Assembly (NCBI GenBank): GCA_048887225.1
Contig: JBHLJY010000004.1
Coordinates: 128,001-192,000, forward strand
Length of the DNA: 64,000 nt
Source of the DNA: Candidatus Hodarchaeota archaeon
Lineage (GTDB): Archaea; Asgardarchaeota; Lokiarchaeia; Sigyniarchaeales; SOKP01
Direction of reading: 5' to 3'
Position numbers and translations under genes: made by a program. Below are positions 5,487-46,736 of this stretch, one piece after another (the stretch's first letter is position 1; the number at the start of each line of letters is the position of its first letter). The notes beneath the pieces were generated by a model. It worked only from the letters and a program-made list of their open reading frames with translations. It had not been told where the DNA came from and did not search any database.

Positions 5487-7121
5487 TTATAATCTTTTTC
5501 TTAAAGGCATTCCAGATAATGCTCTTGTAAAAACTCCTTTATTAAGCGCAAGGACACCATTTACAAAAACATACTCAATACCCTCGGAATACAACCTTGG
5601 ATTTTCGTAAGTAGCCTTATCAATTATCGTATTTTTATCAAAAATGGTGATATCTGCCCAATAACCTTCTTTAAGCAGACCTCGATCTCTTAATCCCAAT
5701 TTTTGAGCGGGATATGAGGTCATTCTTCTTATTGCATCGTGTAATGTAAGTAATTTCTCTTCTCGAACATATTTCCCTAATACTTGTGTAAAAGTACCAT
5801 TGGTATATGGATTTGGAAAATACTCAGAATCTTCTGGAAGGATCCTCCCATCTGAAGCGAACATTGTAAGCGGATGGGTAATTGTTATTATATTATCCTC
5901 TTCAGTTATCGAAAGATAAGTCCCTCCTACTGCACCTTCTTGTTCGATTAAAACATCAATTACAACCTGCCTTGGATCTATATTTTGTTCTATTGAATTT
6001 TGATAGACTGTTTTTCCATTGAATATTTTACTTTTTGGAGCATTTATGTATACTTTTTTCCAATCTTCTCTTTCTTCTATTTTCAGAAAACTCTTCACAA
6101 TTAAATCAATTTCTCCGTAAATTTTATTTTTTAGATCGCTGTCAGTTTTAGATTTCTTTAATATTTCAATTGCTCTCGGAATATCTACTTTTTCTTTAGA
6201 AAGGTAAACCCATGGTGGTGTTAATACAAATAAAAAAGTATGATTAGATGCTTGAGGAAAAACGTCAAATGTGATATCTAAATTTTCTTCACGAGCTTTC
6301 TCAACATATTTATAAGCCTTTCTTATATCTCCGCGCCAAAATCCAAATGGTTTAAAATGATTAATTTGAACAGGTATTCCTGATTTAGCGATTTTAATTG
6401 CCTCTTTAGTAGCTTTAACTAATCCAATCGCAAATCCTCGAAAATGAGTGGCATAAATTCCATCATATTTATTTACTACCTTGCAAAGTTCAATAATTTC
6501 GTCGGTTTTAGCAAAAGAACCTGGTGGATAATCTAACCCTGTAGACATACCGAAAGCACCATTTTTCATCTCTCCCTCAAGGATCTCTTTCATCTCCTCT
6601 AATTCTTCGGAAGTTGGTGCTTTATTATTCAAACCTAAAACGTTAGCCCTTATCATTGAATGACCAATTAATGGAATCACATTAATAGGTATTTTTCTTT
6701 GTTTTAACGCCTCTAAATATTCATTCAAATTTTGATAAGCAAATTCTTTTTCAAAATCTTCACTCGCACCAAGAATTGCTCCGAACATTTCAATATCATC
6801 TTTTTCAATTTTATCAGAATTTATTGGTGGTATCATAGAAAAACCACAGTTCCCTATAACGTGAGTTGTAACCCCCTGTGTTAATACATTTTCACCACGG
6901 CTTAATAGAATAGTTTGATCAGAATGAGTATGAATATCAATAAAACCAGGTGAAACTATAAGTCCTGAGGCATCAATCACATCTTCAGCGTCATCTTCTC
7001 TTATCTTCGTTTCGATATTTTGAATTTTACCATTATCAACTAACAAATCTGTTTTAAACCACGGATTACCCGTTCCATCAACAACTCTTCCATTCTTGAT
7101 TAAATAAGATTTTGGCGTAAT
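5487..7121 (-). CDS. N-acyl-D-amino-acid deacylase-like amidohydrolase (start extended to ATT)
   Basis: PGFIDIHTHSD, GNCG, GMSTGLDYPPG, ADITIFD. The open frame continues upstream of the tracked ORF as ITPKSYLIKNGRVVDGTGNPWFKTD, the conserved family N-terminus. No ATG/GTG/TTG occurs before the in-frame TAA; SD-like AAGGGGA precedes ATT. Confidence 0.85.
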   Translation of the reverse strand: MTPKSYLIKNGRVVDGTGNPWFKTDLLVDNGKIQNIETKIREDDAEDVIDASGLIVSPGFIDIHTHSDQTILLSRGENVLTQGVTTHVIGNCGFSMIPPINSDKIEKDDIEMFGAILGASEDFEKEFAYQNLNEYLEALKQRKIPINVIPLIGHSMIRANVLGLNNKAPTSEELEEMKEILEGEMKNGAFGMSTGLDYPPGSFAKTDEIIELCKVVNKYDGIYATHFRGFAIGLVKATKEAIKIAKSGIPVQINHFKPFGFWRGDIRKAYKYVEKAREENLDITFDVFPQASNHTFLFVLTPPWVYLSKEKVDIPRAIEILKKSKTDSDLKNKIYGEIDLIVKSFLKIEEREDWKKVYINAPKSKIFNGKTVYQNSIEQNIDPRQVVIDVLIEQEGAVGGTYLSITEEDNIITITHPLTMFASDGRILPEDSEYFPNPYTNGTFTQVLGKYVREEKLLTLHDAIRRMTSYPAQKLGLRDRGLLKEGYWADITIFDKNTIIDKATYENPRLYSEGIEYVFVNGVLALNKGVFTRALSGMPLRKRL

Positions 7122-7308
7122 TTTAATCCCCTTTATTAATTTTTATTTATAACTTCCTTTTTATCCATATATAAATGTTGTATTTTTAGTAAAACTGATG
7201 AATTTTTAAAATGAGATATCGAATTAAAAAACAATGAATAAAACTAAAATCAAAAAATACAACTCAATCAGAAATTAAAAAAAGAATTTCTTGCTGATTT
7301 AAAATTAT

Positions 7309-9801
7309 TCATATCTTATGAGACTCTCGTGCGATTATCTCGTTTTGCAATTCTCTCCCGATCGCAGTAAAGTAAGCGTTGTACCCTGTAACTCTTACTA
7401 GTAGATTTTTGTAATTCTGTGGATGCTTTTGAGCATCTTTTAACATTTCAGCATCTAACATATTTACTTGTAAGCAAGTACCTCCATTCTCAACATAGCT
7501 CCTTAGATAGGATTTGAATTTTTCCTTATGTTCGGGATCTACAAGAATACTTGGATTAAATGTTATTGTATGGGAAGCACCATTTGGTAAATAATTAATG
7601 TATTCTCCTGTGGCAGTTTTACCACCCAACGCTATTCCAATAGAATTAGCAACAGAAGTGGGACCTTTTGTATCTGCTCCGTTTGTAGGGCAAATCGCGT
7701 TTGATAAGAATGTGCCACTATTCCGACCATTTGGAGTTGCCACTGTAAAATGAGCGTCCGCTCCAGCCCAATAATTCCACGATAACATTCCTGGACGATA
7801 TTGAAAATTAGTTGGTGTTTTATATTTCCAGCATTCGTCTGTCCATGTTTTCATAATCACTCTTGCTAGTTCATCAGCATCATTTTCGTCATTTCCGTAT
7901 TTCGGAGCTTTATTCTTTAAGATTGTTTGCATAACTTCAAATCCTTTGAAATCATTCATTAATGCTTCTTTAATTTGAGATATTGTATATTTTTTATCTT
8001 CATAAACCAGCTTTTTAATTGCTAATAATGAATCAACCGTAGTAGCAAATCCAACTCCCTCAACCGTCACAAAACTTAATTCTGGGCCACCATTTCTAAC
8101 ATCTAATCCCTTTTCTATACAACCTTGAACGAAAGCTGATAAATATGGTGTAGGGAGATATTCTCCGCGAAGTTCTTCACATAAATTGTTCGTATCCACT
8201 GTGTATTTTATGATGAATTTTATTTGTTCTTTCCAAGCGTTCCAAAACTCTTCCCATGTTTTAAAATTTTCAGGTTCACCAGTTTCTGGACCAATTTTTT
8301 CCCCAGGTTTTGTAGCTCTATCGTTTCCTAACATATTTCTTCCGTTCCAAAGCGTTAATTCTATGCTTTTGGCCAAATTAGGATTACAATTAACCGTTCC
8401 TGAACGATCATTTCCTTGCATAGTGTTTTCTAAGCACCCTACACAAGCATAATTCCAAGCTTCTTCTTTGGGTATTCCTTCTTTAACCATACCGGCAATA
8501 CTCCTCTCGTCAAAATTTATTAGAAAAGGAGCTCCTTGAGACCTTGATATCATTTCAATTATTACATCAAGCAATCTATCTGGAGAATTTCTATGTAACC
8601 TTACGTTTGGTTTTGGCTCCAAGATAGGCGACCACTCGTCAATAACCTCTAAAATTATATAAGTTAGGTCATTCGTTAAGTCTTCTCCACTAGAGCCGCA
8701 TCCAGATAAAGTCATTAGCTGACCAAACGCAGACGTAATGCCCTGCTTGCCGGTTCTTATCATGGCATCATACACAGTATTACAATGGAACCAGAAGCTT
8801 CCTAATATATCTTTGGCAAATTCTTTTGTAATGTTTTTCTGGTCTATCACATCTTTTTTATATAAAGACCATAAATGTTGATCTGTTCTACCAAAAGAAA
8901 GTCCAGGTCCGGGATAAGACTCTTCCGCCATTACTAGCATATGTGTAAGCCATATCGCTTGAAGTCCTTGCCAAAAGGTTTCAGCAGGTTCCCATGGGAC
9001 CGTTTCTAAATTTTTTGCCATTTGTTCAAGTTCTTCAACTCTTTCAGGAGTAGAAGCTTCAATTTTTAATCTTCTACATTCCTCTGCATACTTTTTTGCC
9101 AGTTTTCTTGGAATTTCAGAAGCTATTATTATTGCTCTAAGTTCCGCTCCTTTTGGACCACTTTTATCTTCTTCACTTAATTTAAAGTATCTTTCCCTTG
9201 CTTTTTCATAATAAAATTTAAATCCTTTCTTAACAATAGTCTCGTAATCGGGAATAATATGACCTGCGACAGCACCGAGATTTCCAAAGCCTGATTGATG
9301 ATATTTAAAAACTTCGTCTCTATTTCTTATATTTTTTTTCCAATACTCTTTTGCTTCTTTTTGATTAAAACATTTCGATAATTGCGTGTTAAAACGTCCC
9401 CCCGCAATTAAATCATTTTCAGAAATAATTTCTTGAGGAATATAATTAAGCATAACGTCTTCAAAAAACATTATTCTACGTTCTGGCAAGGATAATTCCC
9501 AAAAATCTTCTGGTAATTTAACTGGTAAAGCCATCGATCTAAAAGAAGAAGCAAAAACTCCTTTGTCGTTTTTTCCCAATATTTGAATATAATAAAGCAC
9601 TTCCGGTGATATATAATAATCTCCTTCGAACCATATTATATCCCAATCAGTGCCAGTCGTGAATGGCATAAATTCGTTATTCCATTCCCGTTCTACACCC
9701 TTAAAATAATAATCTCTTAACCATTTTGATCTTGCAGATAAATCGTGAGGTTCAGCAATAGGATATTTTGGTCCTTCTTTTAATTTTTCAGTATCGCTCA
9801 A
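7309..9801 (-). CDS. glycyl radical enzyme (PFL2/dehydratase-like class), substrate unknown
   Basis: 830 aa; Gly loop LLVRVTGYNAYF, Cys loop ACVGCLENT, SFGRTDQHL, PKYGND, ATPNGR. Confidence 0.95.
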   Translation of the reverse strand: MSDTEKLKEGPKYPIAEPHDLSARSKWLRDYYFKGVEREWNNEFMPFTTGTDWDIIWFEGDYYISPEVLYYIQILGKNDKGVFASSFRSMALPVKLPEDFWELSLPERRIMFFEDVMLNYIPQEIISENDLIAGGRFNTQLSKCFNQKEAKEYWKKNIRNRDEVFKYHQSGFGNLGAVAGHIIPDYETIVKKGFKFYYEKARERYFKLSEEDKSGPKGAELRAIIIASEIPRKLAKKYAEECRRLKIEASTPERVEELEQMAKNLETVPWEPAETFWQGLQAIWLTHMLVMAEESYPGPGLSFGRTDQHLWSLYKKDVIDQKNITKEFAKDILGSFWFHCNTVYDAMIRTGKQGITSAFGQLMTLSGCGSSGEDLTNDLTYIILEVIDEWSPILEPKPNVRLHRNSPDRLLDVIIEMISRSQGAPFLINFDERSIAGMVKEGIPKEEAWNYACVGCLENTMQGNDRSGTVNCNPNLAKSIELTLWNGRNMLGNDRATKPGEKIGPETGEPENFKTWEEFWNAWKEQIKFIIKYTVDTNNLCEELRGEYLPTPYLSAFVQGCIEKGLDVRNGGPELSFVTVEGVGFATTVDSLLAIKKLVYEDKKYTISQIKEALMNDFKGFEVMQTILKNKAPKYGNDENDADELARVIMKTWTDECWKYKTPTNFQYRPGMLSWNYWAGADAHFTVATPNGRNSGTFLSNAICPTNGADTKGPTSVANSIGIALGGKTATGEYINYLPNGASHTITFNPSILVDPEHKEKFKSYLRSYVENGGTCLQVNMLDAEMLKDAQKHPQNYKNLLVRVTGYNAYFTAIGRELQNEIIARESHKI

Positions 9802-9936
9802 TTTTTTATCTCCTTAAACTTTTAGTCTGTTATTTAAGATGAAATTATATGATTGATTATTTATAAATTGTTTTTACAGAATATAAGAATCTATTATATT
9901 AGAAAAAAAAAATTAATAAATAAAAAAAAGTAGTGA

Positions 9937-10467
9937 TTATTTTAACCTTTCTTCGGAAAGCTTTAAATGATCTGTCTCTACTTCGACAAATGCTTGAAAT
10001 ATCTCTTTAACACGAGCATTTTCGGCTTCTGCTGCTGCTTGACCGTAAAATTTAATAGCTCTATCTTCACGACTATGAGATTCTTCGAGGTTTGGCTTAT
10101 ATTCTGGTGCACATTTATCGTATTTGGGGAATTCCACTTTATCTAATTTTAGGATTTTTTTCCAAACTGAAGCATGCTCGCCTTCTACTTTAGCAAGAAT
10201 TTTAAATAATTTCTGACCATCTAATTCTGGGGTTTTCTTACTAGCACATTTATAGAAGATATTATTAGAAATTTCGACTTCTAACGCTTTTTCAGAGTTG
10301 GCTTTATCTTTTTCATTTAAGTCAACATCCCATGCTCCTGTATCATCGTATTCCTTTGAGTTTATAAAGTACTTTTCATATGCACCACAGAAAGGGCAAC
10401 GAGAGGGCGCTTCTTCTCCTATATAGGCTTCACCACATATTTTGCATACAAATATTTGAACAGAAAT
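9937..10467 (-). CDS. reverse rubrerythrin-like protein (N-terminal rubredoxin + ferritin-like di-iron domain), ATT start
   Basis: Frame open from ATT at 10467: ISVQIFVCKICGEAYIGEEAPSRCPFCGA...ALEVE...FY...VEGEH...SRE..AIKFY...VETDH (176 aa). SD AGGGTGA lies 6 nt upstream, with an in-frame TGA just before. The track shows only the last 66 aa. Confidence 0.9.
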   Translation of the reverse strand: MSVQIFVCKICGEAYIGEEAPSRCPFCGAYEKYFINSKEYDDTGAWDVDLNEKDKANSEKALEVEISNNIFYKCASKKTPELDGQKLFKILAKVEGEHASVWKKILKLDKVEFPKYDKCAPEYKPNLEESHSREDRAIKFYGQAAAEAENARVKEIFQAFVEVETDHLKLSEERLK

Positions 10468-10691
10468 TTTATTTCACCCTATTTTCTTTTTAAATCTTAA
10501 TTTTAAAAAATTACATTTGTGTATGATTTTTGATATAAGGTTTTAGATCTTAAAAATTTTGAGAATATATATAGTTTTGACTTAAAAATTAAAAGTACAA
10601 TCATTCTTAAAAGCAATTATTAAAAACAAATAAAAATAAAAAGAATTATAAGACCTTTAATTGAGTATTAACAATATTAATTTGATATTTC

Positions 10692-11789
10692 TTGTATAGA
10701 GTTATTGGAATTGACCCAGGCAGCTTAACATGGGATTTTTTTGGATTAGAAGATAATAATATAATATTAGATACTTCAATACCCTCCAAAGAAATAATGA
10801 AAGATCCCCAAAAAGCTATTACTGTCATAAAATCTGTTGAAAATATTGATTTAATGGTCGCACCGAGCGGATTTGGTCTTCCATTAAAAAATGTAAGTGA
10901 TTTGACGGAAAAAGATATTTTTTTCACATTGTTAAAATTTGAACAAAAGGATAAAGAAAAACTAGTAGGACTCGGAGAAATTTTACGGCTAATAAAATCA
11001 GCAAAAATCCCGGGTATTATTGTTCCAGGAGTTAAACATTTACCAACTGTTCCAAGATATCGAAAAATTAATAAAATTGATATGGGAACCGCCGATAAAT
11101 TATGCACTTCTGTTGTCGGAATTAGAGATCAAATCGAAAGATTTGAGGTAAAACCTGAAAATGTTAATTTCATTCTGGTCGAAGTAGGTTATGGATTTAC
11201 CGCTGTACTTGCAATAGAAAATGGTCAAGTAATTGATGGTATTGGAGGTTCAAACATTATGGGATTTAGAGCCTGTGGCAGTTTAGATGGGGAATTAGCA
11301 TATTTAATTAAAGAGATAAAAAAAAACAATATTTATAAAGGCGGTGTTGCGTCGATTGCTGGCTATTTAGATTTAAGTTTAAAAGAAATAACATTATTAG
11401 CTGAAAAAGACATTCAAATAAAAACTGCCCTTAAAGCTTATATTTCAAGCGTTAAAAAAGCTGTCTTTGGAATCTCTTCCTCTTTTTCAAGTAAAGAAAA
11501 AATATCGGAAATATTATTAGCTGGACGAGGTGCTGAGTTAAATTATTTAAGAGATCGATTCATTCGAGGATTAAAAGATGTTGCACCCGTAAGAGTAATG
11601 AAATCTTATAGTCAAATTGCAAAACGTGCCGCACAAGGCGCTGCTTTTATAGCCAAAGGAATTTTAGGCGAAAACGATCTATTTGAATCAATTATTAATA
11701 ATTTAAAAATCAAAGAAGCTTCCGGTACTATTTTAGACGATATTTTTATACCATTTAATAAAGAAAAATTGATAAGTGATTTAGATTAA
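10692..11789 (+). CDS. DUF1464 family ASKHA-fold (butyrate kinase-like) protein
   Basis: VIGIDPGS, APSGFGLP, PGVKHLPTVP.YRKINKIDMGTADK, DGIGG, LDGELAY. Confidence 0.85.
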   Translation: MYRVIGIDPGSLTWDFFGLEDNNIILDTSIPSKEIMKDPQKAITVIKSVENIDLMVAPSGFGLPLKNVSDLTEKDIFFTLLKFEQKDKEKLVGLGEILRLIKSAKIPGIIVPGVKHLPTVPRYRKINKIDMGTADKLCTSVVGIRDQIERFEVKPENVNFILVEVGYGFTAVLAIENGQVIDGIGGSNIMGFRACGSLDGELAYLIKEIKKNNIYKGGVASIAGYLDLSLKEITLLAEKDIQIKTALKAYISSVKKAVFGISSSFSSKEKISEILLAGRGAELNYLRDRFIRGLKDVAPVRVMKSYSQIAKRAAQGAAFIAKGILGENDLFESIINNLKIKEASGTILDDIFIPFNKEKLISDLD

Positions 11790-13359
11790 TATTCTCATCA
11801 TTACTGGATTAAGAAGTTATCCAACAATTAAGAAAGTAATAAAGCATATTAAGGAGCATAAAATTACCGTAGAAAAAGCTCCTGTATCTATATCTGCCTT
11901 TCTCTCAGAGGAATTAACAGAGACCATCTTAAAAAATAAATCGCTTTCTGAATACATTTTAGTTTTACTTCCAGGATTTGTTCAATGGGATACAACTAAC
12001 TTGGAAAAAAAATTTTCACTAGATATTAGAAAAGGACCTGAATTTGCTTCAGATCTCCCTATCATTATTAAAAATCTTGATAAAATTAATTTATCTAATA
12101 AAATCCCGGCAAACAAATTGTTTGAGATTTCTGGAGAAAAAGAATATGAAAGAATTGTTAAAGAACAGATTGAACGAGCTAAAAATAATATTGGACATCA
12201 TACTTTTTATATCAACGAACAAAAGTCAGATCTTATAATTGGTCGTAATCTCCCTCCACCTATTATAGCAGAAATCGTAAATTGTACGGAAAAAAGCGAT
12301 ACAAACATTATTAGAAAAGCGAAACATTATGTCGGTTCTGGAGCGGACATTATTGATATTGGTTGCGTGTCAAATAAACCAAACCCAGAAAGAGTAAAGC
12401 AAATTCTCAACCTTATAAGAAATAATTTTAATGTCTTAATTAGTATAGATTCGATGGAAACTAATGAAATTATGGCCGCCGTTGATGAGGGAATTGATTT
12501 AATTCTGAGCTTAGATTTAGGGAGTTATAAAAATTTTTTGAACCTTCCCAAAGATATTCCTATTGTTATACTCCCTACAAATGTTAATGCTGGCTATTTC
12601 CCTAAAGATCCCGAAACTCGAGTAAAAAACTTATTTAAATTAACTGAAGAACTACAAAAAAGCGATTTTAAGAAGTTAATTGCTGATCCTTTGTTGGAAA
12701 CACCAATTGCTCCGGGAATTTGTAATTCGTTAGAAACTTATTTTCTTTATAGAAAAAAAATTAAGGAGAAAAAGTACCTATCGATGGAATTACCACAATT
12801 TTTTGGAATTTCTAATGTTATTGAGTTAATGGATATTGATTCTGTTGGAATAAATGGTTTATTAGCAAGCATAGCGGTTGAATTAGATATGGGAATATTA
12901 TTTACAGTTGAACATAGCACAAAATTAATGGGGGGTGTTTCTGAATTAAAAGAAAGCGTTAAGCTAAATTATATCTCTAAATATAAGAAAACACCCCCAA
13001 TCAATCAAGGAATATCTGGAGTTTTTAAGGCAAAGGGCAAGACCGCCCAAGAAACACCAAAAATCTACGAAAAAGATGCGATTATAGTAGATCAATTGAA
13101 TCCAGAATATATACCAGACGAAAAAGGATACTTTAAAATTTATATTAATCATTACGTAGGCAATATTTATGTATTGCATTTTTCTAATGATCATAAATTA
13201 CTTCATACTTTAATTGGGACAAATGCGGAAGCATTAAGTAAAAAGGCAATCGAAATGAACATTACTAACAATATTCAGCATTTAAACTATTTAGGTAGAG
13301 AACTCAGTAAAGCGGAATTTTCTCTATTCTTGGGTAAACCTTATATTCAAGATGTATAA
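11785..13359 (+). CDS. dihydropteroate synthase-like protein with N-terminal Orf20-type domain and C-terminal DUF4346 domain; ATT start
   Basis: Open frame from ATT 11785: INILIITG...ISAFL...VLLPG..QWD..LEKK...KGP.FASDLP; pterin barrel GADIIDIG, ISIDS, LIADP, N..ELMDIDSVGINGLL; C-terminal D.KGYFKI...HLNYLGRELSKAE...Y.QD. Confidence 0.85.
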   Translation: MNILIITGLRSYPTIKKVIKHIKEHKITVEKAPVSISAFLSEELTETILKNKSLSEYILVLLPGFVQWDTTNLEKKFSLDIRKGPEFASDLPIIIKNLDKINLSNKIPANKLFEISGEKEYERIVKEQIERAKNNIGHHTFYINEQKSDLIIGRNLPPPIIAEIVNCTEKSDTNIIRKAKHYVGSGADIIDIGCVSNKPNPERVKQILNLIRNNFNVLISIDSMETNEIMAAVDEGIDLILSLDLGSYKNFLNLPKDIPIVILPTNVNAGYFPKDPETRVKNLFKLTEELQKSDFKKLIADPLLETPIAPGICNSLETYFLYRKKIKEKKYLSMELPQFFGISNVIELMDIDSVGINGLLASIAVELDMGILFTVEHSTKLMGGVSELKESVKLNYISKYKKTPPINQGISGVFKAKGKTAQETPKIYEKDAIIVDQLNPEYIPDEKGYFKIYINHYVGNIYVLHFSNDHKLLHTLIGTNAEALSKKAIEMNITNNIQHLNYLGRELSKAEFSLFLGKPYIQDV

Positions 13360-13381
13360 ATATGAAAAAATAAAAAAAAAA

Positions 13382-13672
13382 TTATATTATTTCAAAACAA
13401 GTTTTCATATCCAATCCTGGCTCCAAAAGTGGTGTAAATTTTTCCATCGTTTTTCCTAAATTTGCCATATGTAATTTTAAAGCGGTATCGTCAGCGTACT
13501 TTTCGTAAAAAATTATTGTTCTCTTCTCTTTTACTCCCTTTACGGTATGTGCAACATATTCTAAGGTTCCTTGCTCAGTTTCTTTTACTTTTGGGATAAT
13601 TTCTTTCAAAACCTCAATGGCTTCTTCCATTTTTCCTTCTTTTACTTTTACGGAGGCAATTACAGTCACCAT
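13382..13672 (-). CDS. ABM-fold putative quinol monooxygenase
   Basis: VIASVKVKEGK..EA...E.GTLEY...FYEKYAD..AL..H; SD GGTGA upstream. Confidence 0.85.
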   Translation of the reverse strand: MVTVIASVKVKEGKMEEAIEVLKEIIPKVKETEQGTLEYVAHTVKGVKEKRTIIFYEKYADDTALKLHMANLGKTMEKFTPLLEPGLDMKTCFEII

Positions 13673-13735
13673 TTAATTAATCACCTTTTTTATGATATAA
13701 ATTATTAATTATTATTATTAATTTAAATAATTTTA

Positions 13736-15106: not shown

Positions 15107-15148
15107 AAATTATTAAATTAAACTTTTTTAAAGAAAAAAGTGAGTTAT

Positions 15149-33094: not shown

Positions 33095-33281
33095 TTTTTC
33101 CTAAAACACCTATTAGTTTTCTAAATTAAGTTAATAAATATGATTGAAAATATGAATTTTTTAATTATGATAATAGATCAACGATTTCCAAAAAGAAATT
33201 GATTTATTACAATTATAAAAATTTTTAATCTTTCAACAATTTAGAAAAAAAACCCTCCTTATATTGTAAGGTGATTAAATT

Positions 33282-34391
33282 ATTAGTCTAAACAAAGAAA
33301 TTGAAAAAATGTTAATTGAGCGTGGAGCAATAAGAGTTGGATTTGCAACGCTTGAAACCATGGCTGGAGGACCGCCTGGAGCCGATATTACTTATTTACT
33401 TCCAGAAGCTCAATCCGCAATTGGGTTTGCAATTCCCATGGATAAGGATTTAATTCGTCCTCATTTAGGAAAAGAACTTCCAAATGGTCGTGCCGATCAC
33501 GAGGAGGACAACATCGCTACTAATATTAGAGCATGGCATCTAGCTAAAGATATTAGAGATTTTTTAATTAAAAAGGATTATAAAGCAATAAGTGTTATTC
33601 CTAATAACCATTATAGAGAAGATTATCCTGGATGGCAAGCATCATTGCCTCCCGAACTTTCATTAAGATATCTCGCTGTCCGTTCTGGAATTGCTTCTTT
33701 TGGTTGGTCGGGTAATGTTGGAATAAAAGGTTATGGTACACCTATAATTTTAGGGGGAATAGTTACTGACGCCAAATTACAGCCAACTGATCCACTTCCT
33801 CCCGAAGAATCGTTTTGTAACAAATGTAAACTCTGTACTAAAGTGTGTGGCTTTCAAATGTTTTCTGACAATGAAGAAACCTCCATTACTCTCGGTGGAT
33901 ATACTTTTAAATACGCAAAAAGGATTAATAAACTAAGATGTGTACTTGTATGTGGGGGGTGTACTGGGTTACACAAATCAGGAAAATTTTCGACCTGGAG
34001 TCCTGGTCGATATGATTATCCAGAAGATAAGTTTGAAGTATCCCGTCTTATGACTCTTGCCATGACAGCTCAGAAAAAAAGGCCAATAATTAAAGATCAT
34101 TCGAAGGGATATGTTCCAGCATCTTATGGCGGGAAGGGAGTAGTACAGCTCACCTGCGGAAATTGCCAGCTAATTTGTTGGGGTGATCCTAAGGAAACTG
34201 CAAAGAATTATAAGATACTGGTTAACTCTGGATGCGTAATCCAGAAAGAGGATGGAGAGCTCATCGTCCTCCCTCCTGAAAAAGCTAAAATTGAATTTGA
34301 AAAAATGGCTCCAAAACGCAAGCGTTTGTATTATAAGGATTACAAGAAAAGTGTAAGGAGAAAAGCAGAAATTGTGCAATTGATGCCTTAA
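33282..34391 (+). CDS. cobalamin/2x[4Fe-4S] QueG/reductive dehalogenase-like protein (probable ATT start 9 codons before the tracked ATG)
   Basis: GAIRVGFA, LLPEAQSAI, LSLRYLAVRSGIASFG, YGTPIILGGIVTDA.L.P, CNKCKLCTKVC, CGNCQLIC; SD AAGGTGA precedes ATT ATT AGT CTA AAC. Confidence 0.8.
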   Translation: MSLNKEIEKMLIERGAIRVGFATLETMAGGPPGADITYLLPEAQSAIGFAIPMDKDLIRPHLGKELPNGRADHEEDNIATNIRAWHLAKDIRDFLIKKDYKAISVIPNNHYREDYPGWQASLPPELSLRYLAVRSGIASFGWSGNVGIKGYGTPIILGGIVTDAKLQPTDPLPPEESFCNKCKLCTKVCGFQMFSDNEETSITLGGYTFKYAKRINKLRCVLVCGGCTGLHKSGKFSTWSPGRYDYPEDKFEVSRLMTLAMTAQKKRPIIKDHSKGYVPASYGGKGVVQLTCGNCQLICWGDPKETAKNYKILVNSGCVIQKEDGELIVLPPEKAKIEFEKMAPKRKRLYYKDYKKSVRRKAEIVQLMP

Positions 34392-34432
34392 AATAATAAA
34401 AAATTTCAAGCATTAGAAAATCGATTTCCTTG

Positions 34433-35551: not shown

Positions 35552-35600
35552 TTATCATTTTTTAATATTTTTTCATTTTTAATAATTTTTTTATTATAAT

Positions 35601-36407: not shown

Positions 36408-36479
36408 TTTTATTATTATTTTATAGTTAATTTATAAAAACATTGGATATTTATATAGTAATTAATAAAAATTTATTGG

Positions 36480-37403: not shown

Positions 37404-37458
37404 TTAAACTTAATTAAATCTGAAAATTAGAGAAAAATTTCCCAAAAATTATTATTGT

Positions 37459-37478
37459 ATTGAACAATATAGTTCAAT
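37459..37478. promoter_or_regulatory. palindromic candidate operator upstream of the aminotransferase
   Basis: ATTGAAC-N6-GTTCAAT, about 10 nt before TATA-like TTTATAAA (37489-96). Confidence 0.4.
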
Positions 37479-37516
37479 TATAATTTTATTTATAAATTAT
37501 TTAATTAAAGAAATAC

Positions 37517-38707: not shown

Positions 38708-38754
38708 TCTGTAGGATATATTAATTTTAGAGTTAATACTAAGGTGTTTTAAAA

Positions 38755-39624
38755 ATTACCTCAGTAAGCGAAAAAGAATTTTTAAATAAACTCTTAGAAG
38801 TAGTCGCCAAACTCTCAAGTATAGCAAGAGCCCAAGGATCTCGTTTTGAAAAATTATGGGACGATTATTTAAAACCTATTAACGAAAATCCTCACAAAAT
38901 CCGTAATATACCTCTAGACAAAAAGAAATTTATTGAAGACATCAATTATAGAATTGGTATTCTGAAAATCGTAGAACAGTCTATGGTTGACGGATTTTAT
39001 TGCATTAAATCTCTATTAGAAACATTATACAATTCATATTTGAATGATTCAGAATTATTTAATAAGGATTTTAAAAAAGAAGATCAATTAATCCTCAAAT
39101 ATATGATAGCTAGAGAAATTTTAGGAAATCTAGTTCAGTATAATAGAATGGAACATGAAACTGTTCCAATAAAATACAATATTATGGCACGAAATTACTT
39201 ATTATTAAAACTTCAAGGACAAAAAGATACTGAAATTCTTGAAAACATGAAAAAATTAAACATCGATATTGATTTGGCAAATATACAAAATATCATGAAT
39301 GAGATTGAAGTAGAGGGTCTAATAAGTAAATCACTAGAAGGTGAAAATTATTATTATAGTTTAAGGAAAGAATTAGAATTAAGCGAAGATGGTACAGAGC
39401 AATATGATCTTCACTTATATCCTTTAATTGCTTGGCCCACGCAATTTTGGAGAAGTTATTATAATATCAGGGAATTAAACGTTACTATAGACGAAAATAT
39501 TAAGTATCGTGATTTCCTTCATAAAGTTTTGTCCAAATCAGCTACTCAAGGATTCGGTTCTGCTAATTTTGTGTTTAAAAATTTAGTGAAGTATTACGAA
39601 AAGATTAAGGAAGAGGGGACTTAG
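38755..39624 (+). CDS. hypothetical helical protein with possible winged-helix segment; ATT start
   Basis: Frame open for 76 codons upstream of the tracked ATG (ITSVSEKEFLNKLLEVV...). SD AAGGTG precedes ATT 38755, with an in-frame TAA at 38740. Segment IQNIMNEIEVEGLISK...YYYSL is wHTH-like. Confidence 0.7.
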   Translation: MTSVSEKEFLNKLLEVVAKLSSIARAQGSRFEKLWDDYLKPINENPHKIRNIPLDKKKFIEDINYRIGILKIVEQSMVDGFYCIKSLLETLYNSYLNDSELFNKDFKKEDQLILKYMIAREILGNLVQYNRMEHETVPIKYNIMARNYLLLKLQGQKDTEILENMKKLNIDIDLANIQNIMNEIEVEGLISKSLEGENYYYSLRKELELSEDGTEQYDLHLYPLIAWPTQFWRSYYNIRELNVTIDENIKYRDFLHKVLSKSATQGFGSANFVFKNLVKYYEKIKEEGT

Positions 39625-40526
39625 AACTCCTTTGTCTTTTTTAATGGAATGTCGAATTCTTCTAATAAAGGAATAAGATGCTGTTTATCAGCAGAGTTAG
39701 TGCCTTTCCAGTCGATAATAAAGCAATCAATGGATTCTAAATTATTAGATATCATCATCTGAATCATTTCTTTATTTAACTCTTGAATATAATACTTAGG
39801 GCAGATAAATGATACTGCTACGTTTTTAAGAGTTATGAGTTTTCTGAATTGAGGGGCATAATGAGTACCGCCAAAACCAATACCAATCTCGGGGAACTTT
39901 CTCTTTTGTGCCTCGGTATATTCTAAGCATGTTTGAAGAATCGCATGAGCTACCACTTGACCTGCTTTTTCAATCTCCCATTCTGCCTCATGACTCCCTA
40001 ACTCCATAAATATTAATGGTTTTTCTAAAGTTGTTGGACCATGATGAGTTACTTCGATATCTAAGGAAAAATCTGTCATTTCTTTAACGTAAATCTGCTC
40101 TTGTAAGGATATATAAGAAGCTTTTAGTAAAATAGCACTTGTTTTACATAATTCGTAAGGATTTCCTCCAAAATCTGCATTGGCTCCCCAGTTTCCCGTT
40201 GTATGAGTCAAAAAAGCGGGTCTGGCAGCTTCAGACCGATGACGACTGGCAAAAATTAGTAAATCAGGGTTAATTATTGTGTCTTCTAACTTTAAATCAT
40301 TGAATTGGATTAAAGGATCATCAGTTAAGCCAATAAATATTTGATTTTCAGAGAAAAAAGGATTCCAATCCCTTTTGGAGATAACTATTTCTAATTCCAA
40401 TAATGGATGTTCATGCCATTTTGTACCGACTTCCTTGAACTTAAAAAGATTATCTCCTATAAAATTTTCTCGAATATTCATAGAGGCCTTGTCTTCAGTA
40501 GAAGTTATTATTAAAAATTGTGTCAA
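39621..40526 (-). CDS. dtdA: archaeal D-aminoacyl-tRNA deacylase (DTD2)
   Basis: S..D.ASMNI, FASRHRS, LT.H.TGN, FGG, EVTHHGPT, FMELGS...EW, GFGGTHYAP.F, DWKG. Confidence 0.93.
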   Translation of the reverse strand: MTQFLIITSTEDKASMNIRENFIGDNLFKFKEVGTKWHEHPLLELEIVISKRDWNPFFSENQIFIGLTDDPLIQFNDLKLEDTIINPDLLIFASRHRSEAARPAFLTHTTGNWGANADFGGNPYELCKTSAILLKASYISLQEQIYVKEMTDFSLDIEVTHHGPTTLEKPLIFMELGSHEAEWEIEKAGQVVAHAILQTCLEYTEAQKRKFPEIGIGFGGTHYAPQFRKLITLKNVAVSFICPKYYIQELNKEMIQMMISNNLESIDCFIIDWKGTNSADKQHLIPLLEEFDIPLKKTKEF

Positions 40527-40760
40527 ATATACGTCACCGAAAACTTGTATTTCTTTAATTAAATAATTTCTCTTCTAATACACAAAAAAGATATATACCT
40601 TACAATTATTATCCTCATTTTAAAAATTTTTACAAGTTTAATATAAATTTAAAAAACAATATTTTTATATAATATTAAAAAATAAAGCCCTAATTTTTTT
40701 TAAAAGTATTCTATAAAAAGATTCTTTTAAACAGAATTAAATAGATTAAAGGAGAAATAA

Positions 40761-41153
40761 TTGGCCAAAATTATTCAAGACCTCTGGATTTTAACACAAA
40801 CTGGTACCGTTGTGTTTAAACGAGTTTTTAATGCAAAAGTTGACGCTCAATTATTTGGAGGGCTTATGAGTGCGTTAACAATTTTTGCAAACGAACTTAC
40901 GAGTGGTGGTCTTAGTAATTTTGAATTAAGTTCTATAAAATTTACTATTTTTAAAAGCAAGGATTTCTTATTTGTCATTAATACGACAAAAAAATATAAA
41001 GAAAAACAACTTCAAAAAGAATTGGATAAATTAGCTGAGAAATTTTTTGATAAATATCCTTTAAATTGGTTCAACTCTAGATGGGATGGCGATATTACTA
41101 TATTCGATGATTTTGAAAAAGATATCGAAGACGTATTGCAACCAATCAAATAA
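40761..41153 (+). CDS. longin/roadblock-like small protein
   Basis: IQDLWILTQTG..VF, QLFGGLMSAL..FA.EL, L..L...F...Y, WDGD...F..F pattern typical of Asgard longin-like proteins. Confidence 0.65.
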   Translation: MAKIIQDLWILTQTGTVVFKRVFNAKVDAQLFGGLMSALTIFANELTSGGLSNFELSSIKFTIFKSKDFLFVINTTKKYKEKQLQKELDKLAEKFFDKYPLNWFNSRWDGDITIFDDFEKDIEDVLQPIK

Positions 41154-41315
41154 AGAAAAACATTAATAGATCTTTTTCTTAATTCTTAAATTCCGACTTT
41201 TTACATTTAGTTATTTTAAAAAAACAAATTTTTAATTTATCTAATATAATCCTTAACATACTTATTTAAAATGTTCAAAAGAAAAAAATAAGAAAAATAA
41301 ATTGGAGAATTCAAA

Positions 41316-42761
41316 ATGGCTAGGCCCAGTCCACTAGACATATATGCCTTACTCGATAAGAGTAATTGCAAAGATTGCGGTTATGATACTTGTATGGCCT
41401 TTGCGACCGATTTATTAGAAAGAAAAATCACTTTAGACGATTGTAGTCATCTCAAAAAAGATCCTAAGCAAGCAAAAAAGCTCGAAAAATTAAGGGAAAT
41501 AACAACTCCTCCACAAAAGTCTGTTATAATTGGAGTTGGTGAGCGTGCTACTATTGTAGGTGGAGAAGAAGTATTAATGCGTCATCAGCTTACATACTAT
41601 AACGAAACTGCACTTTTTATTGAAATTGCTGACGACGATCCCGACTTAGAAGAAATTGCTAAATATTTAACTGATTTAAAAATTGAAAGAATTGGCGATG
41701 TTCTTAGAATTAATGGTATCGCTCTAAGATGTGTATCAGGGGATATTGATCAATTTAAATTAGCCACGAAAAAAATTGCAGAGGTTTCGGATCTTCCCCT
41801 TATGTTATGCTGCTTTAATCCAGAAATATTATTAGCAGCCGCCACAGAAATAAAAAATAAAAGGCCTTTATTATACGCGGCAACTAAAGATTCTTGGGAA
41901 CAAGTTGGAACTTTTGCCATACAAAACAATTTACCTATTGCCGCGGTATCGAGTGATTTAAATGAATTAGTTTCTTTAAGTGCCACCTTAAAAAAATTAG
42001 GCGCAAAGGAGATCATATTAGATCCGGGAACTTTCTTTGGGCCCGGAAAGTTAACATTTACATACGATAATATAATGCAATTAAGAAATGCTGCCATTGA
42101 TAAAGAGGATCCTAACGCTGGTTGGCCAATAATGGGTGTTCCAGCTGCCTATTGGGCTCAAATAGATACCAGTCAAGGGGATTTATGGACTCATCAATAC
42201 CAAGAAGTAATTATGGGAGCTATCTTAGAGTCAATTGATATTTCTTTGATAGTACTGCACACTGGTCAAAAGAAAGACGAGATCTGGGCATTATTGGCCT
42301 TAATGACCCTACGGCAAAGTGTGTTTTCTGATCCAAGAATCTACCCAGCAGTTGACCCTGGACTGTATCAAATTGGAGAGCCTGGGGATATGGCACCAAT
42401 ATTTGTAACCTCAAATTATAGATTAACAAAGATTCCAGTAGAAATAGACATTAAAGGTGCTAACCTTGATTGTTGGCTCCTAGTTGTAGATAGTGAAGGA
42501 ATTGGAATTGAATCTGCCGTAGCTGGAGGACAGTTTAATGCAACTGCCATTGCTGAAGCTGTAAAAGAATATAATGCATTTGACAAAGTAAAACACAGAA
42601 TTTTAATAATTCCTGGTATGGCAGCCAGATTAAGCGGAGCATTAGAAGATGAAGCTGATGCTTTTGTCGTAGTTGGTCCGCGAGACAGCTCTGGCATCAA
42701 AAAATTCTACGATACTCAATGGGATCCAGAAGGGTTCATGAAGGAATACGCAGAACGCTGA
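41316..42761 (+). CDS. cdhE: acetyl-CoA decarbonylase/synthase gamma subunit (corrinoid Fe-S protein large subunit)
   Basis: NCKDCG..TCMAFA...C, GGEEVL.RH, RPLLYAAT, FSDP, VTSNY.LT, AVAGG, IIPGMAA, VGPRDSSGI. Confidence 0.95.
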   Translation: MARPSPLDIYALLDKSNCKDCGYDTCMAFATDLLERKITLDDCSHLKKDPKQAKKLEKLREITTPPQKSVIIGVGERATIVGGEEVLMRHQLTYYNETALFIEIADDDPDLEEIAKYLTDLKIERIGDVLRINGIALRCVSGDIDQFKLATKKIAEVSDLPLMLCCFNPEILLAAATEIKNKRPLLYAATKDSWEQVGTFAIQNNLPIAAVSSDLNELVSLSATLKKLGAKEIILDPGTFFGPGKLTFTYDNIMQLRNAAIDKEDPNAGWPIMGVPAAYWAQIDTSQGDLWTHQYQEVIMGAILESIDISLIVLHTGQKKDEIWALLALMTLRQSVFSDPRIYPAVDPGLYQIGEPGDMAPIFVTSNYRLTKIPVEIDIKGANLDCWLLVVDSEGIGIESAVAGGQFNATAIAEAVKEYNAFDKVKHRILIIPGMAARLSGALEDEADAFVVVGPRDSSGIKKFYDTQWDPEGFMKEYAER

Positions 42762-42797
42762 GTTTAAACATATTTATTACTTTTTTTATATTTTCAT

Positions 42798-43454
42798 TTA
42801 AAATAAGGAATATATTTTTTCTGTTGTTATTTCTTTAATACTCTTCAAAATTATAGTTTTAGAAGTCCCTGAATGTTTTAATTGTTCGGCTGTATGATTT
42901 CCAGATAATAAACCTATAAAAGGACAACCTAACATTTCAGCAAACTCTTTGTCGTTAGGGTGATCTCCAATAACAACAAATTTATAATCTGGATATTTAT
43001 TAAAAAGAATTTCCTTCAATCTATAATCAATTTTACTCTTTCGTTCGTTAGTTTCTCCTAAAATAAAATCGAAGTATTTATCAATTTCCAGATATCTTAA
43101 CAATTTCAATGCCATTTCTTGTTTTTTTGATGTAACCACCCCTAAAATAAATCCTCGTGTTTTAAATTCCTCCAATTTTTTTATTACATCAGGGAATAGA
43201 TTCACTTGATAAATTCCCTTAGAACCATAATAATCCCTAAACATAGATGTAAGTAATGACGTCTCGAAATCTGTAACTCTAGCAAACATAATATCCAACG
43301 GAATTCCAATCAGTTCTTCTATTTTGAGATTATTTAAAGGTGGGATATTATATCTTTCTAGAGCATAGTTAAATGAGTTTACAATGCCTTTCTTATTATC
43401 AATAAGAGTAAAATCTAAATCGAAACTTAGAATAATTTTATTTTTAGGTTTCAT
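42798..43454 (-). CDS. HAD hydrolase (phosphoglycolate phosphatase-like)
   Basis: FDLDFTLID, GVVTSK, IGD..ND. Confidence 0.88.
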   Translation of the reverse strand: MKPKNKIILSFDLDFTLIDNKKGIVNSFNYALERYNIPPLNNLKIEELIGIPLDIMFARVTDFETSLLTSMFRDYYGSKGIYQVNLFPDVIKKLEEFKTRGFILGVVTSKKQEMALKLLRYLEIDKYFDFILGETNERKSKIDYRLKEILFNKYPDYKFVVIGDHPNDKEFAEMLGCPFIGLLSGNHTAEQLKHSGTSKTIILKSIKEITTEKIYSLF

Positions 43455-43536
43455 CAGTTAAATTAATTGAAGGTATTTTTTACAATAAAAATAATCGCTT
43501 TAAATTTAAAAATAAATAGAAAAAGAATTTTAAGAT

Positions 43537-44925
43537 TTATTTACTTTTTGTAATAAACGCTTTTCTCTTAATTATTAGAATCAATGAAATTAGGGGAATG
43601 ATTATAAATATTACATAGTAATTTCCAAATGATATTACTGCTCTCTCATCGTCATCATCGTCATCATCATCACCAGTAGGGATACCTCCAGGTGGACTTG
43701 TTACCGTTAATAGGGGATCTCCAAGTATAGTCATTCCGTGCCAAATTCTTTGAGTTAATTTAGTGGGTGTCCATACATCATTATTATTAAACCAACTAAC
43801 GAATGAATCGCCAATTGATTTACCATTTTTTAAAGGATCATAAAAATATTTATATAAATCCATTCCTCCTGATTTTGAACTACATAATACAGTCAAAGTG
43901 TTATTGGAAAAAAGGTATTGTGTACCCAAGCTATCTTTATGTGTATAATTACCATTGTAACATGCATAGAGATTATAGAATAGAGGTTGGGTATTTAGAG
44001 CATTTAATGTTACGGTATCAAACGTGCCTTCAACAGGATTTGGTTGTACTCCAGTTATCATACCAAATAGATGATCAGATTCATTAGAATGACATAAGAG
44101 ATGAACCCATTCATAGTCTAAGGTCAAATTATTCTTATAATTTGTTGGGTTTGTAGTTGCATTGGTACTATGAACAATTCGCTCAGCTCCAGTATAAGTA
44201 CTGAAGCTACTTGTCCATCCTGGAATCCAACTTGGTCTCGCCCATTCATCATCTATATATAGCATACCTTTATGTGGTCTTGAAAGTTTTCCAGTTCTAT
44301 ACTCATGGTTTCGTTTAAAATATTCTCGAAGTGCCTTAGACTGGTTAATACCACTTAAAGGGAGTGGATTAATACGTGCAACCCATATTTCAGGTTGTAC
44401 ATCACTCCCAGGTAGCGCGGGTGGGTTAGTATTATGATCATCATAGATACCATCTGGTATAGTATCACACCAAAAAGCATCTAAATCCATAAGATATAAG
44501 TCACATGGATATATTCCCCACGGATCTGGAAAATTCAAATCATTATACCATACATATGGAAATTCTCCAATAAGTATCGCACCTTTTAGACCTAAAGCAT
44601 ATTCAGCAGTTAGATTAATTTTCAGTAATTGTGCGGTAGGAAACATAGTATTATTGATAATTTTGACGGTATAACTATTATTATTTATTATATCTTGCTT
44701 ATATTGATCTACTTCGTTAGTAATGTTAGCATAGATTGTAGAATTAACATAAATTATAACACGCCCTTTAGCACTCGTTATTGGCACAAAAGCACTATCA
44801 TTGCCATCATCTTCTTTACTAAGCCCTTCAGATTGTAAAACATCAGAAAACCATATATTTGAAACCCCCGCTAAAACTAAGGTAAATGCAATTAATATGA
44901 TTACTGTTATATTCGAGTTTCGCAT
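43537..44925 (-). CDS. secreted/anchored peptidase C25 (gingipain-like) with C-terminal poly-Asp + TM + basic tail
   Basis: Signal-like N-terminus; GAILIG..P, CDLY.MDLD, PEIWVARI, putative His (LCHS) and Cys (YACYNG), LGDP.L; tail DDDDDDD-ERAVISFGNYY-TM-KRK. Confidence 0.75.
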   Translation of the reverse strand: MRNSNITVIILIAFTLVLAGVSNIWFSDVLQSEGLSKEDDGNDSAFVPITSAKGRVIIYVNSTIYANITNEVDQYKQDIINNNSYTVKIINNTMFPTAQLLKINLTAEYALGLKGAILIGEFPYVWYNDLNFPDPWGIYPCDLYLMDLDAFWCDTIPDGIYDDHNTNPPALPGSDVQPEIWVARINPLPLSGINQSKALREYFKRNHEYRTGKLSRPHKGMLYIDDEWARPSWIPGWTSSFSTYTGAERIVHSTNATTNPTNYKNNLTLDYEWVHLLCHSNESDHLFGMITGVQPNPVEGTFDTVTLNALNTQPLFYNLYACYNGNYTHKDSLGTQYLFSNNTLTVLCSSKSGGMDLYKYFYDPLKNGKSIGDSFVSWFNNNDVWTPTKLTQRIWHGMTILGDPLLTVTSPPGGIPTGDDDDDDDDERAVISFGNYYVIFIIIPLISLILIIKRKAFITKSK

Positions 44926-45053
44926 AATTTAATCATTTTGGTTTTTTTATATTATTGAAAATAGTATTATAGTAAGAATATTAAGGAATAATATGATGTC
45001 TTTAATATTTAAAATTATTTCGCAATTATGGAAATTTTTGTCCAAACTTATAA

Positions 45054-46736
45054 TTAAGAAAGCAAATTAGTGGGCGGTTGAAGACCTTTAAACAAGGAAA
45101 GGGTATACATAATTTCTTCTGAGCCCTCAATTAACCTCCTTAAGTTATAAGGAAAGTTTTGAAACTCAACCTTTCTGCCCTCGTAGACCCAATCTATGAT
45201 CATTTTTATCATTTCTTTATATTTTTTGATCGTATTACCTTCTGAATCTATTTCCGATATGATTTTCCACGCTTTTTTTAATTTCCCATTAAGAATAAGG
45301 GATAAAGAGGCTAATACGTAAGAATGGACTATATGTGAATAGCCGATTTTTTTCAAATTTGCTGCTCGATAATAATATCTATAAACAGACCTTACAGCTT
45401 GCCTTAAAAAATAATCTTGTGCAATATCTAATTGCTCATAAAATTTTATGCTTTCTAGAAGGAGTGTAGCTGCTGTGTAAAATTGCTTATTTTTTATACC
45501 TTCTTTGGCGATTTTCTTTAATCCACTGATAATTTGGTTAAATATTCCATATCGGTTAAATTCTAAGTTTCCTTCAACTGCTATATCATAAGCATTTAAA
45601 TACCATTCGGTAGATTGATAAAAATCCCCAATTTTCCAAAAATTATCTCCTGCTTTGATGCAATGCTTATAAGACATTTCAAAATTGTTTAAATCCTGAA
45701 ATATATCCGCCGCATCAAGAAAATTTATTGCTGCTTGAGAATAATCTTCATCCTTTTCAATATAATTTCCAGCTAAAATAAAGCAAGAAGCAGATTCAAT
45801 TAGGTTATCAGTACTTTCTTTATAACACAAACCAGCAGCACGGTAATATCTAGCTATTTTCTGAAAATTTTCTGCATTTTTTTCTAAACTCTCTGCTAAA
45901 TTAATATATGCCCCTGCCTCCTTTCTTGAATAATTAAGATATTGTTCCTCATCGTCTAAGGTCTTATAGAGATTTTTTAATATTTGACATATTTGAGCTA
46001 ATTCTAAGTTTTCGTTCTTTTCTTCAAATTCATGAAATAAATTTGAGAAAAAATCTATTCCATCTAAAACAATATTTTTAGATGTATTATAATCGTCTAA
46101 TTCTTCGAAGCAAAGAGCAATTTGTTGATAAGAAAACGATAAAATATCATAATACTTATAAATTTTTGCGATCTCGATTACATCCTGGTAAGATTTAGTA
46201 GCTTTTTTAAAATTAGACGCCTTTACGTATAATTCGGCTATATTTTGATAATTTTGAGTTAGTTTTCTCGTTTCAACGTTACTCCCATTGTTAAAGCCCT
46301 TCAAAAGTTTGTTTTCTTGCTCCAAATATTTAATACTTTTTAAAATATTATCTTTTTTTGATTTATCGTCTTGAAATTTTTCACCATAGATCTCAGCGAT
46401 TTTTAAATAAATTTCAGCAATTTCGTGTAATTTAGCTTGAATAGTAAAATTCTCAATTAATTTTTCCCATAACTTTATGTTATGCTTATATAATTCAAGG
46501 GCATATGAAAAATCAAGATCCTCTAAAATTTCAGCTGCAGAATAAATAAATTCTCCTGCTTCCCAAATTTCTCCTGATTCGGCAAGCTCGTTTGAAAACC
46601 TAATTGATATTTTAACAATTAGTTGAATTGAATTTTTCTTTTTATTTTTATCGATGATTTTTTGTACATATCCTACAGAATCTCTTAGTCTCTCTAAAAA
46701 ATCTGTGTAATCACTGTAATCCTCTTCTTCAAGAAT
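45054..46736 (-). CDS. alpha-SNAP-like/TPR helical repeat protein; ATT start
   Basis: Frame open for 137 more codons upstream of the tracked TTG (ILEEEDYSDYTDFLERL...) back to an in-frame TGA; repeats of the A..Y..AA.CY type (ARYYRAAGLCY, AAINFLDAADIF). Confidence 0.7.
   Translation of the reverse strand: MLEEEDYSDYTDFLERLRDSVGYVQKIIDKNKKKNSIQLIVKISIRFSNELAESGEIWEAGEFIYSAAEILEDLDFSYALELYKHNIKLWEKLIENFTIQAKLHEIAEIYLKIAEIYGEKFQDDKSKKDNILKSIKYLEQENKLLKGFNNGSNVETRKLTQNYQNIAELYVKASNFKKATKSYQDVIEIAKIYKYYDILSFSYQQIALCFEELDDYNTSKNIVLDGIDFFSNLFHEFEEKNENLELAQICQILKNLYKTLDDEEQYLNYSRKEAGAYINLAESLEKNAENFQKIARYYRAAGLCYKESTDNLIESASCFILAGNYIEKDEDYSQAAINFLDAADIFQDLNNFEMSYKHCIKAGDNFWKIGDFYQSTEWYLNAYDIAVEGNLEFNRYGIFNQIISGLKKIAKEGIKNKQFYTAATLLLESIKFYEQLDIAQDYFLRQAVRSVYRYYYRAANLKKIGYSHIVHSYVLASLSLILNGKLKKAWKIISEIDSEGNTIKKYKEMIKMIIDWVYEGRKVEFQNFPYNLRRLIEGSEEIMYTLSLFKGLQPPTNLLS

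Follow-up and report, generated by a model that had tools for sequence, protein, structure and literature searches.

In Escherichia coli, infC, which encodes initiation factor IF3, and pcnB have AUU start codons, and infC is autoregulated. ATT, ATC and ATA are listed as initiators in NCBI translation tables 11 and 4, and AUA and AUU starts are used in mitochondria and mollicutes. An ATT start lying upstream of the annotated ATG is supported experimentally for Enterococcus faecalis ebpA (PMC4447247), and the Asgard tubulin AtubA has been proposed to begin at a "rare ATT start codon" (Sci Adv 2026, PMC13394414). In eukaryotes, as is generally known, initiation also takes place at near-cognate CUG, ACG and AUU codons, and eIF1 is autoregulated via a poor start context (reviewed in PMC5666671 and PMC4705826). 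I describe here a 64,000-nucleotide (nt) stretch of an Asgard archaeal genome (C4:128001-192000, hereafter the window), in which six genes appear to be translated from ATT behind a Shine-Dalgarno (SD) sequence. Comparison of these genes with their orthologues, and a survey of the whole genome, suggest that ATT, ATA and ATC (collectively ATH) at such sites are very probably genuine near-cognate start codons, used alongside the canonical ATG, GTG and TTG.

The window comes from a metagenome-assembled genome (MAG) of 3.27 Mb (49 contigs, 30% G+C, 98% complete). The host is an Asgard archaeon with a genome of the Promethearchaeota/Loki type; related loci, retrieved by a search with one window protein, are deposited under Promethearchaeota or other Asgard archaea and belong to MAGs of several accession series.

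Six window genes with a putative ATT start

The initial annotation of the window had singled out five genes, and a probable sixth, whose reading frame continues upstream of any canonical codon to an ATT. A check of the sequence anatomy bore out all six sites. In every case an in-frame stop closes the frame 0-8 codons upstream of the ATT, no ATG, GTG or TTG occurs in between, and an SD lies 4-7 nt before the ATT. The genes are listed below, the last figure being the spacing between SD and ATT.

5487..7121, minus strand: amidohydrolase (D-aminoacylase-like, hereafter the deacylase); ATT 7121-7119; SD AAGGGGA 7133-7127, 5 nt
9937..10467, minus strand: rubrerythrin; ATT 10467-10465; SD AGGGTGA 10480-10474, whose TGA is the in-frame stop, 6 nt
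11785..13359, plus strand: dihydropteroate-synthase-like protein (DHPS-like; DUF6513, Pterin_bind, DUF4346); ATT 11785-11787; SD AAGTGA 11774-11779, 5 nt
33279..34391, plus strand: gene of unknown family (hereafter the sixth gene); ATT 33279 or 33282; SD AAGGTGA 33268-33274, 4 or 7 nt
38755..39624, plus strand: hypothetical protein; ATT 38755-38757; SD AAGGTG 38741-38746, 7 nt
45054..46736, minus strand: TPR/SNAP-like protein; ATT 46736-46734; SD-like GAGTTGATC 46750-46742, 7 nt

For the SNAP-like gene the ATT site stood, but the SD was revised: GAGTTGA had been given, and GAGTTGATC, with 8 of 9 positions matching GAGGTGATC, is the better candidate.

The canonical-start-free 5' part of these genes, hereafter the extension, is long in most cases. 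In the deacylase gene the stop lies 8 codons upstream (TAA 7145-7143, then AAA TTA ATA AAG GGG ATT AAA ATT, the last triplet being that at 7121), and the first canonical codon is a TTG 25 codons downstream. In the rubrerythrin gene no canonical codon occurs until a GTG 110 codons downstream; the protein, of 176 residues, is devoid of Met. An in-frame TAG immediately precedes the ATT of the DHPS-like gene, whose first canonical codon, a TTG, comes 72 codons later. The stop is 4 codons upstream in both the hypothetical gene at 38755 and the SNAP-like gene (a TGA in the latter), and the first canonical codon is an ATG 76 codons downstream in the former and a TTG 137 codons downstream in the latter. 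In the sixth gene, TAA immediately precedes ATT ATT and an in-frame ATG is found at 33309, 10 codons downstream; the energy of the SD duplex ahead of ATT 33282 is -10.8 kcal/mol, compared with -0.9 ahead of this ATG.

Conserved domains and selection bear on a first alternative, namely that translation begins at the first downstream ATG, GTG or TTG and that the open 5' stretches are untranslated leaders, open by chance. The public gene call of the 38755 gene does use the downstream ATG, giving 213 residues versus 289 from the ATT, and the ATG of the sixth gene is merely 10 codons on. However, complete conserved domains lie within extensions: the rubredoxin-like RUBY_RBDX domain of rubrerythrin covers residues 6-34, inside the canonical-start-free part, and positions 2-86 of the DUF6513 profile match residues 2-86 of the DHPS-like protein. 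The Amidohydro_3 match of the deacylase spans residues 47-523. Selection was measured as the pairwise ratio of nonsynonymous to synonymous substitution rates (dN/dS) against orthologues. It is 0.05-0.30 in the extensions, the same range as in the rest of each gene, the sole higher value (0.55) coming from a near-identical pair. The 24-codon extension of the deacylase gave 0.16-0.30; the 75-codon extension of the 38755 gene (0.06-0.26) and the 136-codon extension of the SNAP-like gene (0.12-0.15, equal to the remainder of the gene) are constrained in this way although neither has Pfam support. The stretches are moreover free of stops over 25-137 codons, a start at the first canonical GTG would leave rubrerythrin with only 66 of its 176 residues, and orthologues carry ATG at the ATT column, as detailed below. 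Taken together, domains, selection and orthologue columns indicate that the extensions are under purifying selection and translated, in agreement with the initial annotation, and initiation at the downstream canonical codons is hardly credible. The prediction that standard annotation truncates such proteins is likewise borne out by the 213-residue public form of the 38755 protein.

Alignment of orthologue N-termini, which had been proposed as a check, places either a canonical codon or a conserved ATT or ATC at the column of the window ATT. For rubrerythrin, the relatives have ATG (5), TTG (1) or ATT (3), and for the 38755 gene ATG (6), TTG (1), GTG (1) or ATT (3). The deacylase column is TTG in a 95%-identical sibling, and an ATG lies no more than 1-2 codons away in four others. 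In 10 family genomes from 4 genera, the ATT of the DHPS-like gene follows the in-frame stop immediately or within at most 2 codons, and the column is ATG in one genome of another family. The SNAP-like column is ATT or ATC in 12 of 12 other family genomes; the stretch from stop to column contains no in-frame canonical codon in 10 of them, of the remaining two, one shows a TTG in frame immediately ahead of the ATT and the other an ATG, also in frame, five codons upstream. As to the sixth gene, its downstream ATG is replaced by ATA in one orthologue, and in its paralogues an ATG precedes the ATT column by two codons, giving N-termini of about the length of the ATT-extended form.

These columns also bear on the possibility that the sites reflect assembly or sequencing errors, or decaying pseudogenes, in which a canonical start was lost or shifted by an indel. 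The source is metagenome-assembled, and beside three of the sites there is an out-of-frame GTG, TTG or ATG that a one-base difference puts in frame in a few relatives: the GTG within the rubrerythrin SD in two (G002, G010), and the ATG upstream of the SNAP-like gene in one distant relative (G012). However, these codons belong to the SD and fall in frame in those few relatives because the SD spacing is 5, not 6 nt, the GTG of the SD core coming into frame automatically; in the window and in several relatives the in-frame stop excludes them. The same ATT with an upstream in-frame stop is found again in as many as 12 other family genomes, the related loci retrieved with a window protein belong to MAGs of several accession series, and an independent assembly of run SRR30758827, made with a second assembler, gives the same bases at the 38755 and 33279 sites. 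Finally, the frames are open over their full length and selection on the extensions is intact, which is not how frameshifted or decaying pseudogenes look. The single-base indels envisaged in the initial annotation as a refutation are thus not what the nearby codons represent, and error or gene decay is a most improbable source of the six sites.

A GGTGA at 5-nt spacing puts its GTG in frame with the real start and, at 6 nt, its TGA (window 10474-10480; loci L002, L003, L005, L007 and L008). Since the GTG of the SD is in frame at 5-nt spacing, gene callers may choose it as the start in some relatives.

Probable ATH starts across the genome

Usage was quantified in 2,703 stop-bounded open reading frames (ORFs) of at least 100 codons that passed a codon-usage filter. 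Among codons located upstream of the first canonical start, an SD of at least 5 nt at a spacing of 5-7 nt precedes 78 of 3121 ATH codons (2.5%) versus 164 of 17697 other codons (0.93%; Fisher test, p = 1.1e-11). The excess over other codons corresponds to about 49 genes, or to 68 when a 4-nt SD is accepted. By this estimate about 45-70 genes, or 2-3% of all genes, start at ATH, and they make up about a quarter of the clearly SD-led starts. The SD-led candidates comprise 47 ATT, 45 ATA and 10 ATC codons. Two statements of the initial annotation therefore hold in part. ATT starts are indeed recurrent, but not ATT alone, since ATA is as frequent and some ATC occurs in addition; and the proportion of one gene in 10 applies to the window (6 of 54 ORFs of at least 100 codons), which exceeds the genome average, but not to the genome (about 2-3%).

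The first 40 codons of the ORFs give a similar picture for SDs of at least 6 nt: ATG, TTG, GTG, ATT, ATA and ATC are found 73, 21, 7, 33, 28 and 7 times behind such an SD, against gene-interior expectations of 8.6, 2.1, 1.8, 13.9, 10.7 and 5.9, respectively, and decoy codons of similar composition are rarer than expected. The clearest genome-wide result is the spacing profile. The counts of ATH codons are highest at 6 and 7 nt (37 + 18), as are those of ATG (64 + 52) and TTG (20 + 12), while the decoys are flat at these positions (10 + 6), with their maxima one codon away on either side. In 133 of the 2,703 ORFs at least 25 codons precede the first ATG, GTG or TTG, and many of these show an SD, 6 nt and then ATT or ATA. 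Two cruder procedures, the profile of triplets downstream of every GGTGA, AGGTG or GGAGG pentamer and a broad test of 3-10 nt spacing, gave no usable signal because most pentamers are intragenic and the SD of a nearby canonical start contaminates adjacent codons; register-aware spacing and decoy codons are therefore needed.

Twenty candidates outside the window were compared with Pfam. In nine, the first profile positions of a domain fall within the canonical-start-free part, so that the ATH start is required; the other 11 give no information, and none speaks against it. The nine encode uS10, uL14, the zinc ribbon of TFB, V-ATPase subunit D, a Ras-like GTPase, a ParA/MinD-like ATPase, and NAD_binding_8, SRPBCC and phosphodiesterase proteins. 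Four of them are located as follows.

C43:7605-7907: uS10; start ATA by the Pfam boundary
C4:28507-28929: uL14; start ATC, GTG in a congener
C4:216785-217753: TFB; start ATT, the same in a congener
C3:118797-119444: V-ATPase subunit D; start ATA by the Pfam boundary

In 800 kb of the congener, seven candidates have an orthologue, with ATT (3), GTG (2), ATG (1) or TTG (1) at the column, and the ATH excess is significant (p = 0.0035). The same amount of a sister-family genome gave an excess of 6.5 (p = 0.04) in what is a weak, underpowered test. By these comparisons the trait is clear within the genus, and the six window genes and the aIF1 gene described below show it across the family.

An SD duplex of -6 kcal/mol or lower precedes only about 18% of ATG starts versus 10% of random interior sites, so that most genes are probably leaderless or devoid of an SD. 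The corresponding figure for the best ATH at the head of long coding extensions is 37%, versus 18% for decoys. A dependence of ATH starts on the SD is therefore plausible.

The DHPS-like gene raises the possibility that ATT is used only through translational coupling, the ribosome restarting after an upstream gene without a stringent check of the codon, in which case no general relaxation would be necessary. The ATT of this gene and the TAA of the upstream gene (10692-11789) overlap as ATTAA (window 11785-11789), an arrangement conserved in the family. However, none of the other five window genes is abutted upstream by a gene of the same strand, and genome-wide a position within -20 to +5 nt of the end of an upstream ORF is occupied by only 11% of SD-led ATH starts, compared with 27% of their ATG counterparts. 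On these figures coupling was rejected as a general cause, and it is unlikely to account for the ATT starts. The five-base overlap requires a start codon ending in T and was found in most of the family genomes examined.

The initial annotation had offered relaxed, SD-driven start selection and a shared translational control as explanations. The recurrence of ATH behind SDs throughout the genome favours the former. A common regulon is not supported, the affected genes having no common function.

Three further window ORFs with extensions of 14-21 codons (19263, 24322 and 26738) were considered and discarded: no non-canonical start is needed, as their domains begin after canonical starts. At window 55689-55697 the start is ambiguous, a strong 7-nt SD being followed by an ATA (55689) and, two codons later, by an ATG (55695). 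The deacylase gene is adjoined by an 830-residue ORF (7309-9813, minus strand) that has a TTG start with a good SD and a C-terminal RVTGYNAYF motif, as is typical of pyruvate formate-lyase-type glycyl-radical enzymes.

Initiator tRNA, aIF1 and start-codon tolerance

An altered genetic code, or an initiator tRNA dedicated to AUU or AUA, could in principle account for ATH starts. Aragorn detected 18 tRNA genes without intron search and 31 with introns, including the only initiator-type tRNA found (C34:11007-11133). The latter is intron-bearing and normal-looking, with anticodon CAU, an A1:U72 pair and three G:C pairs in the anticodon stem; inspected for substitutions, as the initial annotation had proposed, it shows none that would explain the trait. 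Translation with the standard code gives full-length Pfam matches. Within this incomplete set of 31 tRNAs, a dedicated AUU-reading initiator is unlikely, and an altered code was rejected on the same grounds. That only 31 genes were detected even with intron search suggests that many tRNA genes are probably split or carry unusual introns.

The gene for aIF1 itself (SUI1; C26:21104-21418, minus strand) lies outside the window and has no canonical start before the zinc knuckle. In each of the 20 family genomes with a match, its start column is conserved, follows AAGGTTGTGA and is occupied by ATC or ATT. In the sister family the column is TTG, GTG, ATG or ATA, and in 16 genomes of other Asgard families it is ATG (13) or, at an SD spacing of 6, ATA (3) (survey loci L112-L141 and L248-L263). 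The aIF1 gene thus shares the distinctive feature of infC, a fidelity factor whose own gene starts at a weak non-AUG codon. Substitutions in the protein had also been suggested as worth inspecting. Loop 1, the role of which is shown in PMC6237735, reads RKWG in both this family and the sister family, compared with RRFG or ARYG in reference archaea. It shows no family-specific change that would explain the trait, and as the sole cause RKWG is ruled out, being common to a sister family with mostly canonical aIF1 starts.

The mechanism that would best fit these observations is as follows. Pairing of the SD with the anti-SD would place the 30S subunit so that the codon located 6-7 nt downstream of the GGTGA core enters the P site, where the ordinary initiator tRNA (CAU) would be accepted on AUU, AUA or AUC despite the mismatch at the third codon position. 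The protein would begin at the ATH codon, presumably with Met delivered by Met-tRNAi. Tolerance would have to be high, given that ATG, ATT, ATA, TTG and GTG interchange at the same position among close relatives, and a strong A+T mutation bias would favour the conversion of ATG to ATA or ATT.

Several points weigh against this account. Among the 89 ORFs whose coding extensions are long, about 60% contain no ATH codon that a strong SD precedes, and these are left unexplained by SD-led initiation at ATH. The genome assembly contains no 16S gene from which the anti-SD could be read; the anti-SD used is not the host's own but was taken from a genome of a different family of the same order, where the 16S tail has the usual form, GGATCACCTCCT. 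No molecular cause of the tolerance emerges from loop 1 of aIF1, which lacks a family-specific change. In the deacylase gene an in-frame ATA (7136) and ATT (7127) just upstream of ATT 7121 make the exact codon less certain, and the sixth gene is a weaker case, as the ATG 10 codons downstream might serve equally or instead. More generally, the assignments were made by sequence comparison. These points notwithstanding, initiation at ATH behind an SD is, in my view, very likely to be the correct interpretation of the six sites and of their counterparts in the genome.

An attractive inference is that stringency may be set by a feedback loop like those of infC and eIF1, given that aIF1, the proofreading factor, has an ATT or ATC start of its own in all 20 family genomes with a match; overall stringency would then be low by way of this loop. 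A bolder version, which I consider possible but doubtful, is that the feedback through aIF1 holds stringency permanently low, AUU and AUA having become regular starts of about a quarter of the SD-led genes, ribosomal proteins included, and that autoregulation of the eIF1 type predates the origin of eukaryotes, since weak aIF1 starts (UUG, GUG, AUA) are found again in other Asgard families.

Searches for eukaryote-like proteins in Asgard genomes almost always use gene calls in which only ATG, GTG and TTG are allowed. If 2-3% of genes start at ATT, ATA or ATC, the corresponding proteins will be deposited truncated or not at all. Canonical-only calls would cost the SNAP-like protein 137 residues and rubrerythrin its whole rubredoxin domain, and uS10, uL14, TFB and aIF1 are affected as well; the error carries over into fold predictions, phylogenies and presence/absence tables. 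Routine initiation at AUU and AUA in an organism with eukaryote-type factors, together with the near-cognate start of aIF1, would also make the evolution of start-codon proofreading by aIF1 and eIF1 directly testable.

Comparison with known systems

A literature search for a systematic description of such starts in Asgard archaea yielded the single case of AtubA only. Isolated AUU starts, among them this one, were known; the use of ATH described here is recurrent, quantified genome-wide and backed by orthologue columns.

The E. coli genes infC and pcnB resemble the genes described here in that AUU follows an SD and is read with a normal initiator tRNA, and in that the gene of a fidelity factor, IF3 there and aIF1 here, itself starts at a weak codon. 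By contrast, the E. coli genes are isolated and poorly translated, whereas dozens of genes are concerned here, including those of uS10, uL14 and TFB, and ATA is as common as ATT. Furthermore, aIF1, of the archaeal and eukaryotic type, is unrelated to IF3, and autoregulation, a property of infC, is no more than a possibility for aIF1. With translation tables 11 and 4, mitochondria and mollicutes the genome shares the three codons that differ from AUG at the third position, favoured in A+T-rich genomes. Those systems are bacterial or organellar and use fMet-tRNA with IF3 or no such factor, whereas the present organism is an archaeon with aIF1, aIF1A and aIF2.

AtubA too is an Asgard gene, its ATT is plausibly spaced from a ribosome-binding site, and the deposited protein is N-terminally too short, but a single gene was concerned and the codon was called rare (PMC13394414), whereas here the use of ATT is recurrent, quantified and backed by orthologues. 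The ebpA case differs in being a single bacterial gene whose ATT attenuates expression (PMC4447247). As for eukaryotes, eIF1 is the homologue of aIF1, and from a weak start of the aIF1 gene the same negative feedback on stringency would result. The two systems would differ in how the weak element is built: eukaryotic initiation relies on cap-dependent scanning and the Kozak context, while in this archaeon the ribosome would be positioned by the SD and the weak element would be the codon itself.

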